A stretch of 64,000 nt of DNA from a virus (IMGVR_UViG_3300025151_000024:17435-81434); one strand, 5' to 3'. Positions 55,853-59,621 are shown, counted from the stretch's first letter. Numbers and translations: made by a program. The notes: generated from the letters alone by a model not told the origin.

Positions 55853-56113
55853 TTAATTCTGCATCTGTGTTATTCTGCCGTAAACAGCGGATAAAAATAC
55901 CAAAGACGTGAACAAACCAAATATGAAAAAAGTAGCCTCATTTGTGTTCAAAGAGTTCCCTTTAAACAACAAAACTGCAACCATCAATACTATCAAACTG
56001 ATTAGTTGTACCATAATCATATCAATGACTACACTTCTTTTTGGACTCCACATATCTAATGATAAATTTGTCAGTTGATTAGGGATTACAGTTAAAGGGT
56101 TATTATCTAACAT
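55853..56113 (-). CDS. Two-TM membrane protein
   Basis: Two long hydrophobic segments. Confidence 0.7.
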   Translation of the reverse strand: MLDNNPLTVIPNQLTNLSLDMWSPKRSVVIDMIMVQLISLIVLMVAVLLFKGNSLNTNEATFFIFGLFTSLVFLSAVYGRITQMQN

Positions 56114-56769
56114 TATGCTCTACCTCCAAACATCAAAGACCGGGCAGTTGAACCTAATGCATTACCCATGCTTTCCATCATACCCGGATTTTCCAAAGCA
56201 GCACCAAGAGCACCTTGCAGCATACTTTGATTGGCTGCTGCTAAGATTTGTTGCCTTTTCATTTCAGCGTTTTGGATAATTCCATTAGATTGATTTTGAA
56301 GGTTAGATAATTGTGCAACAATATTTTCTGCACTCAAAGTTTGTAAATCGCTAGGTAGAGAAGTAACATCTAAAGTTAAACTTCCATCCTCTTCATTTAA
56401 AGAAAATTTAGAGTTTTTCAAAACATTTAGTATAGAAAATGTCATGATATTGGTTACCATATCAATGAATACAGGCATTTGTTGACTCACAAAGAACTTA
56501 TCAATCGGGTTCAAAGTTTGCAACATTGCATCCAAAATTTCACTATCTGAAGGAGGTGTTACTGGAGCGTTAGAGTATTGATTGTACTGGTCTCCATACC
56601 CCATTCCACCGAAAAGACCCTGCATCATAGGATTTCCAGCCATACCATTTTGCATAGGTTGTTGTGCAAAACCGTTCATACCAGCACCCATAGGAGCACC
56701 AGTTTGGCTTAGGTTAAGTGAATTTGACGCTAATTGTTGTGATTGATTATTACCAAAAAGTCCGACCAT
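56113..56769 (-). CDS. Gln/Met/Gly-rich helical protein
   Basis: Low-complexity N-terminus, coiled-coil and amphipathic C-terminus; GAGGTGAG RBS. Confidence 0.6.
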   Translation of the reverse strand: MVGLFGNNQSQQLASNSLNLSQTGAPMGAGMNGFAQQPMQNGMAGNPMMQGLFGGMGYGDQYNQYSNAPVTPPSDSEILDAMLQTLNPIDKFFVSQQMPVFIDMVTNIMTFSILNVLKNSKFSLNEEDGSLTLDVTSLPSDLQTLSAENIVAQLSNLQNQSNGIIQNAEMKRQQILAAANQSMLQGALGAALENPGMMESMGNALGSTARSLMFGGRA

Positions 56770-56780
56770 TTCTTCTCACC

Positions 56781-57722
56781 TCATTGTGGTTGTTGTGGAG
56801 GCACAGGGGGGGTCGCCTCATTAGCCTGTTGATTCAAGATTTCTTGGAAAGCAGGTGTAGGTTGATTCATTTGCATCAATTCTTTTTGGAATATTCTTAA
56901 GTCAAAATGGACCGATGTTAAATCATTCATACCAGTTTCAGGATTCTTGTAATGAATTATATTTATACCACTAGTTTTTCTTGAATCTTGTTCAAGCATT
57001 TCAAAAAATGGTTCGTATTTTTGTAGCATTTCAGGAACAGGCGCTTCGTCCTTTTTCACAATACTAACTGGGACGGTAACAATTGAGACCCCTTGTTTCA
57101 CTTTATCTCTAAATCTAGAAGGTTTCATTTCATTTTCTTTTTCTTCTTCGGCTTCCCACTTACAAAGAAGATGGAATAAATGGAGATGTTCAGGACAATA
57201 AGTACCCCTCATTTTTCTTCCACTAGTAACTTTGTCCATAGCCAAAAACGCTTCAGCCTCTCCAGTTACAGGATTTTGCCAGTACATATCCCAAAGACTT
57301 CGGCCAGTCTCATCATCACATATTTTTGCATAGAGATTATCATACTGGATTAATTCTTTACAGTCGCAACCATCAACCACACAAAGATGAGATTGCTTGT
57401 TGTAGAGATATTTTGAGCCAAAAATTCTCCTTGGAGAGAAAAGGAAGCGCTTTGTTGGTCTCAAAAGCCGATATGCTTGTCTAATATCTTGACTTCTAGC
57501 CTTTCTAGGATTGGCGTGAGTGCTTGGATAGAAGTTAACTTTTGGAACTTCAAGATTTCTTTGATTTGCGATTTGTTGCATTTCCCTTTGAGCAGCAGCC
57601 TGTTCCATCAACACTGCTCTAGTCAGTTGTGGGTTACCTTGTGCTGCTAAAGCCATAAGTGCAGCATCATTTGAAAATCCTAAGTTTGTGTATTGACTTT
57701 CACCCGAAAAAGGTATATTCAT
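56781..57722 (-). CDS. Hypothetical protein with probable Zn site
   Basis: CVVDGCDC...YCPEH; Gln/Pro-rich ends. Confidence 0.6.
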   Translation of the reverse strand: MNIPFSGESQYTNLGFSNDAALMALAAQGNPQLTRAVLMEQAAAQREMQQIANQRNLEVPKVNFYPSTHANPRKARSQDIRQAYRLLRPTKRFLFSPRRIFGSKYLYNKQSHLCVVDGCDCKELIQYDNLYAKICDDETGRSLWDMYWQNPVTGEAEAFLAMDKVTSGRKMRGTYCPEHLHLFHLLCKWEAEEEKENEMKPSRFRDKVKQGVSIVTVPVSIVKKDEAPVPEMLQKYEPFFEMLEQDSRKTSGINIIHYKNPETGMNDLTSVHFDLRIFQKELMQMNQPTPAFQEILNQQANEATPPVPPQQPQ

Positions 57723-57726
57723 CGTC

Positions 57727-57912
57727 TCACACATCCTTTACTGGATTCACTTTGATACAAAAGTCCCCATTTTCTATATCCAACTTCCACGTTAATCGGT
57801 CGCCGGGTTTCAAGTCAAACTGCTCTATAATCCAAATTGGAACTGTAGAGCGTAGACTATTCGACCCACCACCTGTGGCTACGAGGGTGGTGTCGTTTTT
57901 TACTCTAGCCAT
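57727..57912 (-). CDS. AbrB/SpoVT/MazE-type DNA-binding protein
   Basis: SLRSTVPIWIIEQFDLKPGDRLTW matches the swapped-hairpin consensus. Confidence 0.8.
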   Translation of the reverse strand: MARVKNDTTLVATGGGSNSLRSTVPIWIIEQFDLKPGDRLTWKLDIENGDFCIKVNPVKDV

Positions 57913-57934
57913 AGTATCACCGAGATGTTAGTTC

Positions 57935-57970
57935 TTCAAAAGGATATTGGTGGGGTCATTCAAAAGGATA
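57935..57970 (+). repeat. Direct repeat TTCAAAAGGATA x2 upstream of the AbrB gene
   Basis: Exact 12-mers at 57935-57946 and 57959-57970. Confidence 0.8.
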
Positions 57971-57974
57971 ATTA

Positions 57975-58688
57975 TCAACTGGACAATAAATCAAGCATGG
58001 TTACTTCCACATTCCACCCAATTCTTGTAGCCATAAAGGAACGTTTTGTTCTAATACCTGCTTTTTGTAATCTAATTAAGTCATCACGAAATGGGTCGAA
58101 AATCTTGTGTTCCCCAATTCTTCCCTGTTGCCAAAGCATTGCAGCGTTCTCATCGAAAAATCGGTCTGCTTTATTCCCAACTAACATGATAACTTTAGGA
58201 GAATATCTTTTACCTCGCCATCTACTTTTTAGGGTTCGGTAGCGATAATTTCTTTTAATCAAAGTATCAACTAAGAATTTGAAGCCCGCAACTTGCTCAA
58301 CTCCTTCCATACCTCCTTTAAAAGCCCGGTCGTCAAACATATAGACAACAGCCTCAACTTGGCGAGATACCATATCTTCAACCCATAAATTCCAATATCT
58401 CTCTTGACCACCAATATCTGCTGAATTTACAACTCTTTTTTCACCCTTCCAATGAACTCGTTTTTTAGTAGCCCTCGGTAAAATGTATCTAGTTAGAATT
58501 TTGAAATGCTCTGTTCTTTCATCTTCTGAAATTTCCTCCATTTCACCCGGAGTAGTAAGATAACTGTCTAAAGTTGTTTTACCAACCATACTTGTCCCAT
58601 AAACAGCAACTGACCTCGGTTTCCAAGAATTATAGAGATTCTGACCCCAAAGGGCTGCACCAATGAGTACACTGCCCGTCATGGACAT
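57975..58688 (-). CDS. Small GTPase, Ras superfamily (Arf-like)
   Basis: G1 GTSMVGKT, G3 DIGGQE..W.LW, VVYMFD, G4 GNKAD, G5-like FMAT..GWNV. Confidence 0.88.
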   Translation of the reverse strand: MSMTGSVLIGAALWGQNLYNSWKPRSVAVYGTSMVGKTTLDSYLTTPGEMEEISEDERTEHFKILTRYILPRATKKRVHWKGEKRVVNSADIGGQERYWNLWVEDMVSRQVEAVVYMFDDRAFKGGMEGVEQVAGFKFLVDTLIKRNYRYRTLKSRWRGKRYSPKVIMLVGNKADRFFDENAAMLWQQGRIGEHKIFDPFRDDLIRLQKAGIRTKRSFMATRIGWNVEVTMLDLLSS

Positions 58689-58692
58689 AATA

Positions 58693-58956
58693 TCAACTCA
58701 CTAAGTCTACTAACCAATTACCAAAATCTGCTACTTGCTGGAAAAACCACTCAACTGTCATAGACCAAAGAGAAACATCGTAATATAATTCAGTAGCACT
58801 AACAGTAAGAACAGACGCTACACTGACAATTATTGTTCTAACCCAACCATAACCCCATTCGTAGACGTTATCTACAGTATTTGCTAAGTGCATAGCACGT
58901 AGCGTTTCTTCAACGGAGTCGTCTTTTGGTGTTTTGAAAATCTTCCCCATGCTCAA
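58693..58956 (-). CDS. Small membrane protein
   Basis: Hydrophobic helix WVRTIIVSVASVLTVSA plus amphipathic Trp-rich C-terminus. Confidence 0.65.
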   Translation of the reverse strand: MSMGKIFKTPKDDSVEETLRAMHLANTVDNVYEWGYGWVRTIIVSVASVLTVSATELYYDVSLWSMTVEWFFQQVADFGNWLVDLVS

Positions 58957-59621
58957 TCACGATTCTTGCTATATCTCAAGTCAGGTGTGCCATCTTTTTT
59001 CAATGGTATGTCTGAAAGTTCGTCAGCCATGTTGTTTAATTCGCTAACTCCAAGTGACTTCGACTCAGTAACTTTGGCTTTGTGAACAGGTGTATTGTTA
59101 GGTGTGCTAGAAACTGGATTTTGCAAAGCCCATTGGTATGCCTCTTCGTTAGTTGAAACCAAAGATGGGTTTAGAGTGGAATGGTAATCTAAACCTAGAT
59201 TTGATTGGTTATTGATATCCCTCATGCTCGGACTAAATGAACTAGGTACTTGGTCAGGATTCTGTTCCATCCATCTAAGTTCTTTTTCTAATTCTAATTC
59301 TTGCCTTCTCAATTCCATATCAGAACGGCGTTGGTCAAATGTAACCTGAATATTTTTGAACCGATTTTGCTGTTGCCTTTGGAATTCTGTTATTCTTGCC
59401 CTTTCTCTTAGATTTCTTTCAAAGAACATCTTAAACAAGTAATAAGCCAGTCCTTGAACAGCGAAAGCCCCCATAGCGTAATTCACTCCGTTCATCCACG
59501 TTTCATCGTTTACTAACCACAGTCTACTATCGAAAATAGCAACTGCTACACCTATCAATGCTGATTGGCTTATGATAAGCCCCATCAGCCTAATTTCTGA
59601 GTCGTTGTTATCGCCCTGCAT
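58953..59621 (-). CDS. Two-TM plus coiled-coil protein
   Basis: Two N-terminal TM helices, charged coiled coil, C-terminal LKKDGTPDLRY motif. Confidence 0.7.
   Translation of the reverse strand: MQGDNNDSEIRLMGLIISQSALIGVAVAIFDSRLWLVNDETWMNGVNYAMGAFAVQGLAYYLFKMFFERNLRERARITEFQRQQQNRFKNIQVTFDQRRSDMELRRQELELEKELRWMEQNPDQVPSSFSPSMRDINNQSNLGLDYHSTLNPSLVSTNEEAYQWALQNPVSSTPNNTPVHKAKVTESKSLGVSELNNMADELSDIPLKKDGTPDLRYSKNRD

Follow-up and report, generated by a model that had tools for sequence, protein, structure and literature searches.

A conserved magrovirus gene cassette encoding a divergent Ras-superfamily small GTPase and membrane proteins, with a possible role in egress or membrane remodelling

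We describe a magrovirus gene cassette in which a virus-specific, very divergent Ras-superfamily small GTPase is encoded together with membrane proteins, a Cys/His protein and a Gln/Met/Gly-rich protein. Five genes form its core, which four clades share in the same order even where GTPase identity falls to 31-38%: those for a 2-TM protein with a charged helix, a small TM protein, the GTPase, the Cys/His protein and the Gln/Met/Gly-rich protein. The cassette is undescribed in the literature searched. As a tentative best guess, it might encode a GTP switch that is tethered to the membrane and serves egress or remodels membranes, and it is a candidate for the means by which tailed viruses of ocean archaea affect or rupture the host membrane.

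The cassette was analysed within a 64,000-nucleotide stretch of viral DNA, hereafter the window. A Pfam scan showed that the window virus encodes TerL, portal, prohead protease and an HK97-type MCP, the latter with 33.9% identity to the MCPs of the Haloarcula viruses HCTV-1/HVTV-1. PolB and thermosome were found in 5/5 related records; the virus's own record, which comprises 81,434 nt at 76% completeness, has both. Magrovirus group A, as published (PMC5434244), has a genome of about 100 kb that encodes PolB, a thermosome subunit and an HK97-type MCP sharing about 33% identity with the MCPs of haloarchaeal siphoviruses. Since MCP identity, PolB and thermosome agree with this description, the window virus is a magrovirus (order Magrovirales, group A). 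The cassette thus belongs to a tailed virus with a dsDNA genome of about 100 kb, whose hosts are taken to be Marine Group II (Poseidoniales) archaea. These presumed hosts are abundant ocean archaea.

The operon-like block proposed in the first-pass annotation was confirmed: seven minus-strand ORFs that abut or overlap (gaps of -8 to +62 nt) lie tightly packed upstream of the terminase. They are real genes, since 468 related GTPases were found at E<=0.01 and the same gene order recurs in 21/21 close loci from IMG/VR. The sole sizeable gap before the cassette is a 148-nt intergenic region (59622..59769, minus strand) with an AT-rich palindrome, TTTATGA about 40 nt before the ATG and GAGGT 8 nt before it. 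This region is likely the start of the transcription unit and may hold its promoter. A sigma-70 scan gave 10 sites versus 14.1 expected, not above chance, with a model that is not applicable to archaea.

The 237-aa GTPase (core gene 3; 57975..58688, minus strand) was assigned by motifs and fold. Among 32 aligned relatives, G1 (Y-G-x4-G-K-T-T), G3 (D-x-G-G), G4 (N-K-A-D) and G5 (M-A-T) vary little or not at all. The GTPase reported with intact G1, G3 and G4 is genuine. Within the G1 P-loop, G31 and K37 are present in 32/32 sequences and G36 and T38 in 31/32. A wide alignment of 11 members, 22-58% identical, keeps P-loop GK[ST], the Asp and Gly of DxxG, and NKxD without change; G31, G36 and K37 are invariant there, D91, G94, N172 and K173 do not vary in either alignment, and D175 is invariant among the 32 sequences and conserved at >=90% among the 11. 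With these nucleotide-binding motifs intact, the protein most likely binds GTP, as judged from its sequence and predicted structure. In Arf, Ras and Galpha, DxGG is followed by the catalytic Gln. The window GTPase has Gln at this position too; among 120 relatives the residue is Gln in 66, Glu in 51, His in 1 and Asp in 1, with no match in 1. As Gln is so often Glu, GTP hydrolysis may work differently, or may not matter. The protein further carries a long switch-I/interswitch insert and a basic insert (residues about 146-163), and in one relative, P0036 (303 aa), the core gene 2 protein is fused to the GTPase. The AF2 model (pLDDT 74, pTM 0.76) shows the six-stranded sheet and flanking helices of a G domain. 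Foldseek returned at least 500 PDB matches at E<=1e-3, headed by Rab and Rho, and among the matches listed all were small GTPases. NCBIfam small_GTP (TIGR00231) matched at E 7.8e-5, below its cut-off (22.5 bits vs 42.5), and so did Pfam Roc (E 0.002, 18.7 bits vs 27) and Ras (14.8 vs 21.6). The motifs and fold of the GTPase thus place it in the superfamily, but outside every curated family model.

The switch II region had been likened to that of Arf. The likeness is real, as Arl8/Arl10 were the best PDB sequence matches to this stretch, but it is weak (E 0.7-1.1, not significant). The window GTPase gave no Pfam Arf (PF00025) match at E<=0.1 and none of 32 close relatives matched this family; among the 11 wide-family members, P0205 alone passed the Arf cut-off (E 4.2e-9), and P0144 reached E 0.0048. 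In hhalign the wide family profile scored equally with Asgard Arf-like (98.1%, E 1.2e-13) and Ras-like (97.9%, E 4.3e-13) GTPases, and the close profile scored better with Ras than with Arf. A tree of 36 rows with Asgard Arf-, Ras- and Rag-like GTPases, its references taken, like those of the profiles, from one Asgard MAG, placed the viral clade separately on a long branch (support 100/99). Structure comparison gave Z scores of 14.3 for SRbeta, 13.9 for Loki RagA-like, 13.8 for Arf6, 13.5 for Sar1, 13.1 for Galpha and 12.5 for Rab, a spread within about 2. Specific Arf/Sar membership, suggested by the first-pass annotation, is not supported in view of the equal Arf/Ras profile scores, the separate branch, the missing Arf match and the frequent replacement of Gln by Glu. 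Nothing was found that points to a bearing on the origin of eukaryote-like small GTPases, which had also been suggested. An exhaustive profile search with the GTPase family yielded 86 proteins at E<=1e-3. The viral family does not cluster with host housekeeping GTPases, a kinship that would have counted against the proposed viral module, and no cellular parent family was detectable in the family searches.

An N-terminal helix is predicted at residues 3-22 of the window GTPase (AF2 model), and a hydrophobic helix is kept at this place in 11/11 divergent family members from all clades. Hydropathy analysis found no 19-residue window above KD 1.0 at this N-terminus, and the hydrophobic moment of the helix is 0.27 in the window protein, which is weakly amphipathic, and 0.27-0.53 across aligned family members. 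By these properties, the predicted helix has one hydrophobic face but is no TM anchor.

Two genes for membrane proteins precede the GTPase gene. Core gene 1 (58953..59621, minus strand; hydropathy, BLASTP and HMM) encodes a 222-aa protein with a strong TM at 12-30 (KD 2.21), a weaker hydrophobic stretch at 49-67 (KD 1.22), a predicted charged helical region at 67-125 and a conserved C-terminal LKKDGTPDxRY motif. It was found in 19/21 close loci, the other 2 being cut at the contig end, by HMM in 11/13 clade-2 loci and by BLASTP (18-23% identity) in 4/4 clade-3 loci; clade 4 has a positional analogue with 2 TMs. Core gene 2 (58693..58956, minus strand; hydropathy, close loci and HMM) encodes a small hydrophobic protein, 87 aa as listed, with one moderately hydrophobic stretch at 39-57 (KD 1.51) and a Trp-rich tail, present in 21/21 close and 11/13 clade-2 loci. 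Its conserved N-terminus, MG[RK]IFKTP, suggests that translation really begins at the ATG two codons further on. At the end of the cassette, an 86-aa protein of holin-like size (55853..56113, minus strand; hydropathy and HMM) has two strong TMs (KD 2.91 and 1.96). The 222-aa protein, also annotated as 2-TM, has 1-2 TMs. The 86-aa gene is accessory and limited to clades 1 and 2 (21/21 close loci; by HMM 12/13 in clade 2 and 0/80 in clade 4).

The annotated Zn protein was borne out in core gene 4 (56781..57734, minus strand; conservation and HMM), which encodes a 317-aa Cys/His protein of no known fold. H73, C118 and C180 are invariant and CX4CXC...CX2H is found in most of 18 sequences; the protein of locus L026 has lost its His ligands. 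The gene always directly follows that of the GTPase, or in the window that of the AbrB protein. No GAP, GEF or other fold was recognisable in it, the only Pfam match being a weak one to UBA_7 (E 0.036). The Gln/Met/Gly-rich protein likewise stood up to analysis: core gene 5 (56113..56769, minus strand; composition, close loci and HMM) encodes 218 aa, with 13 G, 10 Q, 9 N and 8 M among the first 70 residues. The protein bears M-x-G-[LV]-F-G as a conserved N-terminal motif, is of low complexity in its first third and is helical in its C-terminal part. It is present in 21/21 close loci and by HMM in 13/13 clade-2 and 0/80 clade-4 loci, and in clades 3 and 4 it is represented by a positional/compositional analogue only. 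The remaining gene encodes a 61-aa small putative DNA-binding protein of AbrB/MazE fold (57727..57912, minus strand). Pfam MazE_antitoxin, which we take to belong to the AbrB/MazE superfamily, supports its annotation as AbrB at E 9.9e-5, but its 22.7 bits fall just below the 24.7-bit cut-off. The gene was found in 19/21 close loci by tblastn and 20/21 by blastp, and was not seen between the GTPase and Zn genes in the clade 2-4 loci L026, L034, L092 and L109. It is thus accessory, occurring only in the window's own clade. Downstream, outside the core, a 233-aa Cys/His and helix-turn-helix protein (55119..55820, minus strand; Pfam and PHROG) is present in 21/21 close loci. It matched Pfam GerE (E 0.0017) and, at 26.9 bits against a cut-off of 27, HTH_20 (E 4.7e-6); a match to a PHROG small terminase was weak (E 0.026). 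The protein is a candidate for a small terminase or a regulator, and its gene leads on to those for packaging.

The neighbours are conserved with the GTPase across the four divergent clades, and so the independent assortment that would have counted against a functional unit was not observed. The cassette was found in 13/13 clade-2 loci, and the GTPase and Cys/His genes occur together in 4/4 clade-3 loci and, by HMM at E<=1e-3, in 56/80 clade-4 loci, the full order having been read in L034 and L092; the Cys/His gene is also present in 21/21 close loci. Among records chosen by capsid similarity, the GTPase was found in 12 of 17 searched and in 4/4 of those >=85% complete, and the five records without it are fragments (39-68% complete). 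No GTPase or Cys/His homologue was detected when 50,697 phage records were searched by tblastn, those of the lytic haloarchaeal relatives with the closest capsid among them. The cassette is located within the morphogenetic block in every case, and in clade 4 it sits between the MCP/head genes and the tail genes. This position suggests late timing.

Gene content and position together point, tentatively, to a switch for egress or membrane remodelling. The GTPase would be tethered to the cytoplasmic membrane of the host through its conserved hydrophobic N-terminal helix, through the two membrane proteins encoded upstream or through both, and would alternate between GTP and GDP states. The Cys/His protein could bind it as a regulator or effector, and the Gln/Met/Gly-rich protein may be a further effector. 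The switch would control a late membrane event, most likely the weakening, remodelling or opening of the host membrane for virion release, viruses of this kind having no known lysis system. The tether is called into question by the helix itself, which is below TM hydrophobicity and weakly amphipathic. Against egress stand the absence of GTPase and Cys/His homologues from the capsid-similar lytic haloarchaeal viruses, the lack of a GAP/GEF fold in the Cys/His protein and the clade-4 location, as the head/tail gap of tailed phages usually holds head-completion genes, not lysis genes.

The same location, together with the constant place in the morphogenetic block, the window arrangement directly upstream of the candidate small terminase and TerL, and the cassette's standing as core in the capsid-related records (4/4 at >=85% completeness), would suit a GTPase-controlled membrane platform or chaperone for head completion, packaging or head-tail joining, not for release. 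We nevertheless regard such an assembly role as unlikely: we know of no need for membranes or GTPases in tailed-virus assembly, the related haloviruses do without the GTPase and the Cys/His protein, and searches of Pfam, PHROGs and NCBIfam revealed no resemblance to scaffold, adaptor or chaperone families. Small TM proteins among phage structural genes are typical of ejection/pilot or superinfection-exclusion proteins, and the cassette proteins might thus be ejected with the DNA as an envelope channel or block superinfection from within the membrane; a GTPase needs cytoplasmic GTP and regulators, however, so that an intracellular role fits better, and we consider this explanation distinctly improbable. 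Still more doubtful is a takeover of the host, in which the GTPase and the AbrB-type protein would rewire translation, division or vesicle traffic with no direct part in release or assembly. The AbrB-fold regulator inside the cassette of the window's clade, weak Pfam matches to MMR_HSR1 and GTP_EFTU among family members, and the control of vesiculation in Euryarchaeota by ArvA-type GTPases (PMC10927574) speak for it; but the clade 2-4 loci read lack AbrB, the GTPase is constantly accompanied by membrane and orphan proteins and not by regulators, and takeover genes do not usually lie among late structural ones. That the GTPase is an inactive, nucleotide-independent structural subunit of a membrane complex is the least probable reading of all, since the invariance of GK[ST], DxxG and NKxD in the 11 members is the pattern expected of retained guanine-nucleotide binding, even though the residue after DxGG is unconserved.

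Among known systems, the Rab GTPases of giant viruses (e.g. mimivirus Rab, PDB 5xc5) are recognisable Rab members of host-like origin in viruses of eukaryotes, whereas the GTPase described here is that of a tailed virus of prokaryotes, and no parent family for it was detected in cells. From Arf, Sar1 and SRbeta it differs by the large inserts in switch I/interswitch and before G4. Phage holin cassettes resemble the viral one in having small 1-2 TM proteins in the late block by the packaging genes (here the 86-aa protein with 2 TMs and the 222-aa protein with TM and charged helix), which is the classical lambda-type lysis position. However, the 86-aa protein lacks a charged holin-type C-terminus, and we know of no lysis cassette that contains a GTPase, nor did literature searches find one. 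As first annotated, no holin/endolysin pair is recognisable: the Pfam scans of 29 ORFs revealed no endolysin or holin family and, prohead protease aside, no lysozyme, amidase or peptidase family, and PHROGs gave no significant holin/spanin match, only a weak Rz-like spanin one (E 0.042). According to a review (PMC10791045), holins of archaeal viruses are still elusive, how head-tail viruses of archaea lyse their hosts is a matter of hypothesis, and murein is not to be expected in the presumed host.

A system similar in outline is ArvA-ArvB-ArvC (OapABC), the vesiculation operon of Euryarchaeota and DPANN, in which the small GTPase ArvA (1,666 homologues), which has an N-terminal amphipathic helix, drives vesicle budding in Euryarchaeota and a Zn-ribbon partner is the proposed GAP (PMC10927574). 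Pfam OapB (PF09846) for ArvB matched in 0/5 virus records at E<=0.01, with a control match in Haloferax volcanii; OapC (PF09845) for ArvC was absent from the virus's own record and over the cut-off in 0/5 further records, one 12.9-bit match elsewhere in G006 lying under it. As the exhaustive profile search gave only the 86 proteins, the large cellular ArvA family is not within E<=1e-3, which indirectly indicates that ArvA is not a close relative. The viral partners also differ, being TM proteins and orphan proteins. Both are operons of the archaeal world that pair a small GTPase with a Cys-containing (Zn-type) protein. For both, the N-terminal helix of the GTPase has been proposed to insert into the membrane and the Cys-containing protein to act as a regulator, and the cytoplasmic membrane, on which ArvABC acts, is also where the viral cassette is proposed to act.

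The seven ORFs that the first-pass annotation had placed between positions 55853 and 59621 were found where it had put them, tightly packed, within one long run of minus-strand genes that extends across the window. An AT-rich gap of 148 nt with a palindrome lies upstream of the first cassette gene and is the likely start of the cassette transcription unit. According to its hydropathy profile, the 222-aa protein (58953-59621, minus strand) has two hydrophobic helices, the first strong and the second weaker, and then a charged helical stretch. Besides the window's own copy, a short C-terminal motif, LKKDGTPDxRY, was found in 8 of 12 aligned homologues from the window's own lineage (clade 1), and the 60-80 residues before it are hypervariable. 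The 87-aa protein (58693-58956, minus strand) begins with MG[RK]IFKTP and has one moderate hydrophobic stretch, and two strong transmembrane helices were seen in the 86-aa protein. A match of the 61-aa protein to the AbrB/MazE fold falls just below the Pfam cut-off. In the 317-aa Cys/His protein H73, C118 and C180 are invariant and a CX4CXC...CX2H pattern occurs in most relatives; its profile recovered 642 relatives, all of them unnamed and without a Pfam family. The 218-aa protein (56113-56769, minus strand) is rich in Gly, Gln, Asn and Met in its first third, and its N-terminus, M-x-G-[LV]-F-G, recurs in every clade read, even where the remainder is unalignable. PHROGs and NCBIfam yielded nothing useful for the partner proteins of the GTPase. 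Directly before the packaging genes lies a 233-aa protein (55119-55820, minus strand) with two units of Cys/His plus helix-turn-helix, kept in 21/21 close loci. This HTH protein is a candidate small terminase, as suggested by a weak PHROG small-terminase match (E 0.026).

Pfam matches mark the packaging and head genes, with the T4-type large terminase at 49083-50558, the portal at 45732-47477, the prohead serine protease at 37711-39081 and the HK97/SU10-type major capsid protein at 36562-37692. Over 99% of its length, the capsid protein shares 33.9% identity with that of the Haloarcula tailed viruses HCTV-1 and HVTV-1. The source IMG/VR record comprises 81,434 nt, of which the window covers bases 17435-81434, and is rated 76% complete. 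A thermosome-type chaperonin and a family-B DNA polymerase were each present in all five records inspected, the window's own and four related ones. According to PMC5434244 (Philosof et al.), magroviruses are tailed, have genomes of about 100 kb and are assigned to Marine Group II archaea as hosts; their capsid shares about 33% identity with that of haloviruses, and group A encodes a thermosome subunit. The features of the window virus match magrovirus group A of that study. The only sizeable plus-strand ORF at the start of the window (3-623) encodes the C-terminal part of the thermosome, whose gene (16624-18045 of the full record) belongs to the replication module; the replication and late modules are arranged divergently, which is a group A trait in the ICTV profile. 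Furthermore, the minus strand holds a single ORF of 5,488 aa (10947-27413) downstream of the head genes, which from its size and position may encode a giant tail or fibre protein, and, flanked by the portal and protease genes, an ORF of 1,807 aa (39123-44546) that weakly matches an ATP-dependent DNA ligase domain near residues 1404-1488 (E 7.5e-5, under the cut-off). An HMGL-like gene of the HMG-CoA lyase family (62165-63169, minus strand; Pfam E 1.8e-17) has relatives at 31-38% identity in 10 of 21 related loci and is possibly an auxiliary metabolic gene. A word search of sequencing runs, which reports word content only, recovered 0.14-0.15 of the sampled words in two RNA runs and 0.23-0.25 in four unlabelled runs.

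The neighbours proved to be inherited together with the GTPase, as the synteny of the cassette is kept in the four clades of related viruses in which we checked it. Clade 1 (63-100% GTPase identity) comprises 21 IMG/VR loci with the order DUF5872, 222-aa protein, 87-aa protein, GTPase, AbrB, Cys/His protein, Gln/Met/Gly-rich protein, 86-aa protein and HTH protein, save for two loci cut at the contig end and two without AbrB. Among the 13 loci of clade 2 (about 38% identity), the Cys/His and the Gln/Met/Gly-rich proteins were found in all 13, the 86-aa protein in 12 and each of the upstream membrane proteins in 11; AbrB was not found in the one clade-2 locus read (L109). In clade 3 (31-34% identity; four loci, three of them near-identical) a Cys/His homologue lies directly downstream and a 2-TM charged-helix protein upstream of the GTPase in 4/4. 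For clade 4, represented by the relative P0144, 80 of 140 IMG/VR loci were kept, and the ORF directly 3' of the GTPase matched the Cys/His profile in 56 of the 80. The two clade-4 loci that were read encode, in order, a 2-TM protein, a small hydrophobic protein, the GTPase, the Cys/His protein and a Gln/Met-rich protein starting with MMG[VL]FG, and here the cassette sits between capsid/head genes and tail genes. One clade-4 locus (L034, 6487-6981) also encodes, between the capsid gene and the cassette, a 164-aa protein with a C-terminal motif that appears SAP-like by eye. From the gene content across clades 1-4, the cassette core is thus defined as five genes, with AbrB and the 86-aa 2-TM protein as lineage-specific additions.

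When 1.84 billion representative proteins were searched exhaustively by HMMER, the family profile returned only 86 matches at E<=1e-3, most of them fragments, and a word-indexed search found 468 close relatives of the GTPase in marine metagenomes (Tara, JGI, ENA), a few of which are already auto-named "GTPase SAR1 family protein" in JGI records. Across 185,579 species genomes the gene was present on only three MAG contigs of 8-16 kb, labelled Promethearchaeati (Asgard), Maricaulis and Parvibaculum (L120, L121 and L122). Since all three hold the whole viral cassette in order, they are probably mis-binned magrovirus DNA, and the GTPase thus does not cluster with ordinary host housekeeping GTPases, these contigs being its only matches in the species genomes. 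Searches with more distant relatives gave no further relatives, either in viral contigs (P0129 and P0159) or in genome contigs (P0205). Independently of the GTPase, 80 loci were chosen by capsid similarity, of which those on contigs of at least about 36 kb were taken (18 loci) and 17 searched; the GTPase was found in 12/17, including 4/4 that are at least 85% complete, and the five records without it are fragments, 39-68% complete.

The 237-aa protein has the full set of small-GTPase nucleotide-binding motifs. Across 32 aligned relatives there is little or no variation in G1 (GxxxxGKTT), G3 (DxGG), G4 (NKAD), G5 (MAT) or a TTPGEM stretch of the switch I region. Against curated models the protein scored below each cut-off (Roc, E 0.002; Ras, E 0.022; TIGR00231, E 7.8e-5), and a search of PDB sequences with the alignment profile gave nothing significant. 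The best matches of the protein itself among PDB sequences were Arl8/Arl10, in switch II only, at E about 0.7. An AlphaFold2 model built from the alignment (pLDDT 74, pTM 0.76) consists of an N-terminal helix (residues 3-22) followed by a G domain with inserts, one of them basic, and in Foldseek no fewer than 500 PDB chains matched it at E<=1e-3, with Rab, Rho, Ral and Rag at the top. The N-terminal helix is conserved, hydrophobic and weakly amphipathic, and is not a transmembrane anchor. In one relative (P0036, 303 aa, on a single 1,627-nt contig) the small membrane protein and the GTPase are naturally fused by read-through; this is a single record and possibly a sequencing error. A search for fused GTPases between 491 and 2000 aa came back empty, which counts as weak evidence.

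The first-pass annotation had described the GTPase as Arf-like. In favour of this are the structural ranking of the GTPase model, which SRbeta, Arf6 and Sar1 lead with a Loki RagA-like protein, Galpha and Rab within 1-2 Z units, the language-model neighbours, which past the viral clusters are bacterial clusters with Pfam Arf, and P0205, the most distant match of the family profile (E 8e-4), which passes the Pfam Arf cut-off (E 4.2e-9). Against this, none of 32 close relatives matched Pfam Arf, and profile-profile comparison with Asgard MAG references scored Arf-like (98.1%, E 1.2e-13) and Ras-like (97.9%, E 4.3e-13) proteins equally, Ras being ahead of Arf with the profile of the close family. 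A maximum-likelihood tree with 36 rows grouped the viral family (11 rows) in one clade (100/99) on a long branch, joining between Ras-like and Arf plus Rag-like proteins and inside none of them. The tree contained 8 of 39 Arf-model matches in the Asgard MAG (those with an Arf score above the Ras score), 12 of 33 Ras matches (those with loci) and 5 of 6 Rag-like loci (L165 was dropped for an internal stop), and its references come from one Asgard genome, without eukaryotic Arf/Sar/SRbeta, Roc, MglA or ArvA sequences. Membership in the Arf family is not supported, given the equal profile scores, the separate clade, the missing Arf matches and a variable Gln after DxGG, and neither the profiles nor the tree prefer Arf to Ras. 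The GTPase is therefore placed in a new family within the Ras-like superfamily, leaning mildly towards Arf/Sar/SRbeta, as judged against a narrow one-genome reference set. On present evidence the GTPase is not informative on the origin of eukaryotic Arf or Rab proteins.

The GTPase is always accompanied by two to three membrane proteins, its constant partners are the Cys/His protein, which has no known fold, and the low-complexity protein, and the position of the cassette in the morphogenetic gene block is fixed. Late membrane proteins of tailed viruses are usually release or exclusion factors. Moreover, the review PMC10791045 calls archaeal virus holins still elusive and treats lysis by head-tail archaeal viruses as only hypothetical. 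On these two grounds we tentatively favour, as a possible rather than a probable role, a membrane-tethered GTP switch that would time or drive the opening or remodelling of the host membrane at virion release. The haloviruses with the most similar capsid, which are lytic, have no detectable homologue of the GTPase or of the Cys/His protein, and this counts against a release function. The clade-4 site between head and tail genes would also fit with a cassette acting as an assembly platform, which we consider unlikely. That the cassette proteins are ejected or serve in exclusion, the other usual role of late membrane proteins, is less probable again, and a function in host takeover or regulation, for genes within a morphogenetic block, is more doubtful still. 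The residue after DxGG was Gln in 66, Glu in 51, His in one and Asp in one of 120 relatives, with no match in one, and this variability questions the classical hydrolysis mechanism; a nucleotide-independent scaffold is the least probable of these readings for a protein with intact nucleotide-binding motifs.

According to PMC5434244, few viruses of the surface ocean are as abundant as the magroviruses, and their hosts are uncultivated. The word "GTPase" is absent from the main texts of PMC5434244, PMC10160649, PMC11706807, PMC8651126, PMC12999244, PMC5332604 and bioRxiv 10.1101/2025.10.05.680483, whose supplementary annotation tables may list the gene, and full-text searches on GTPases in Poseidoniales viruses or Caudoviricetes found no description of a viral small GTPase. 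With this GTPase, the small-GTPase superfamily gains a deep lineage confined to viruses. How head-tail archaeal viruses exit from cells without a murein wall is an open question (PMC10791045), for which a strictly co-inherited cassette of membrane proteins around a private GTP switch offers a concrete, expressible and assayable target.

The closest working analogy for the viral GTPase, and an analogy only, comes from Haloferax, where vesicle budding requires ArvA, a small GTPase that has an N-terminal amphipathic helix and a Zn-ribbon partner proposed as its GAP (PMC10927574). The viral cassette differs from ArvABC in that neither OapB nor OapC occurs in the viral records. Beside ArvA, the viral GTPase provides a second case from the archaeal world where such a protein may act at the cytoplasmic membrane. 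The five-gene core might also be a self-contained, virus-encoded membrane-shaping machine that releases tailed virions or builds their assembly site, a reading that we regard as improbable. In it, the GTPase switch with its membrane-seeking helix would work together with two membrane receptors, the Cys/His protein as regulator and the Gln/Met/Gly-rich low-complexity protein as a "coat" or condensate; the machine would act by budding, tubulating or rupturing the archaeal membrane, or else by forming an assembly site bound to membrane. If true, this would be a fourth egress mode of archaeal viruses and the first that is GTPase-driven. Such a machine would resemble the Sar1/Arf coat systems or ArvABC in its working, with descent from neither.
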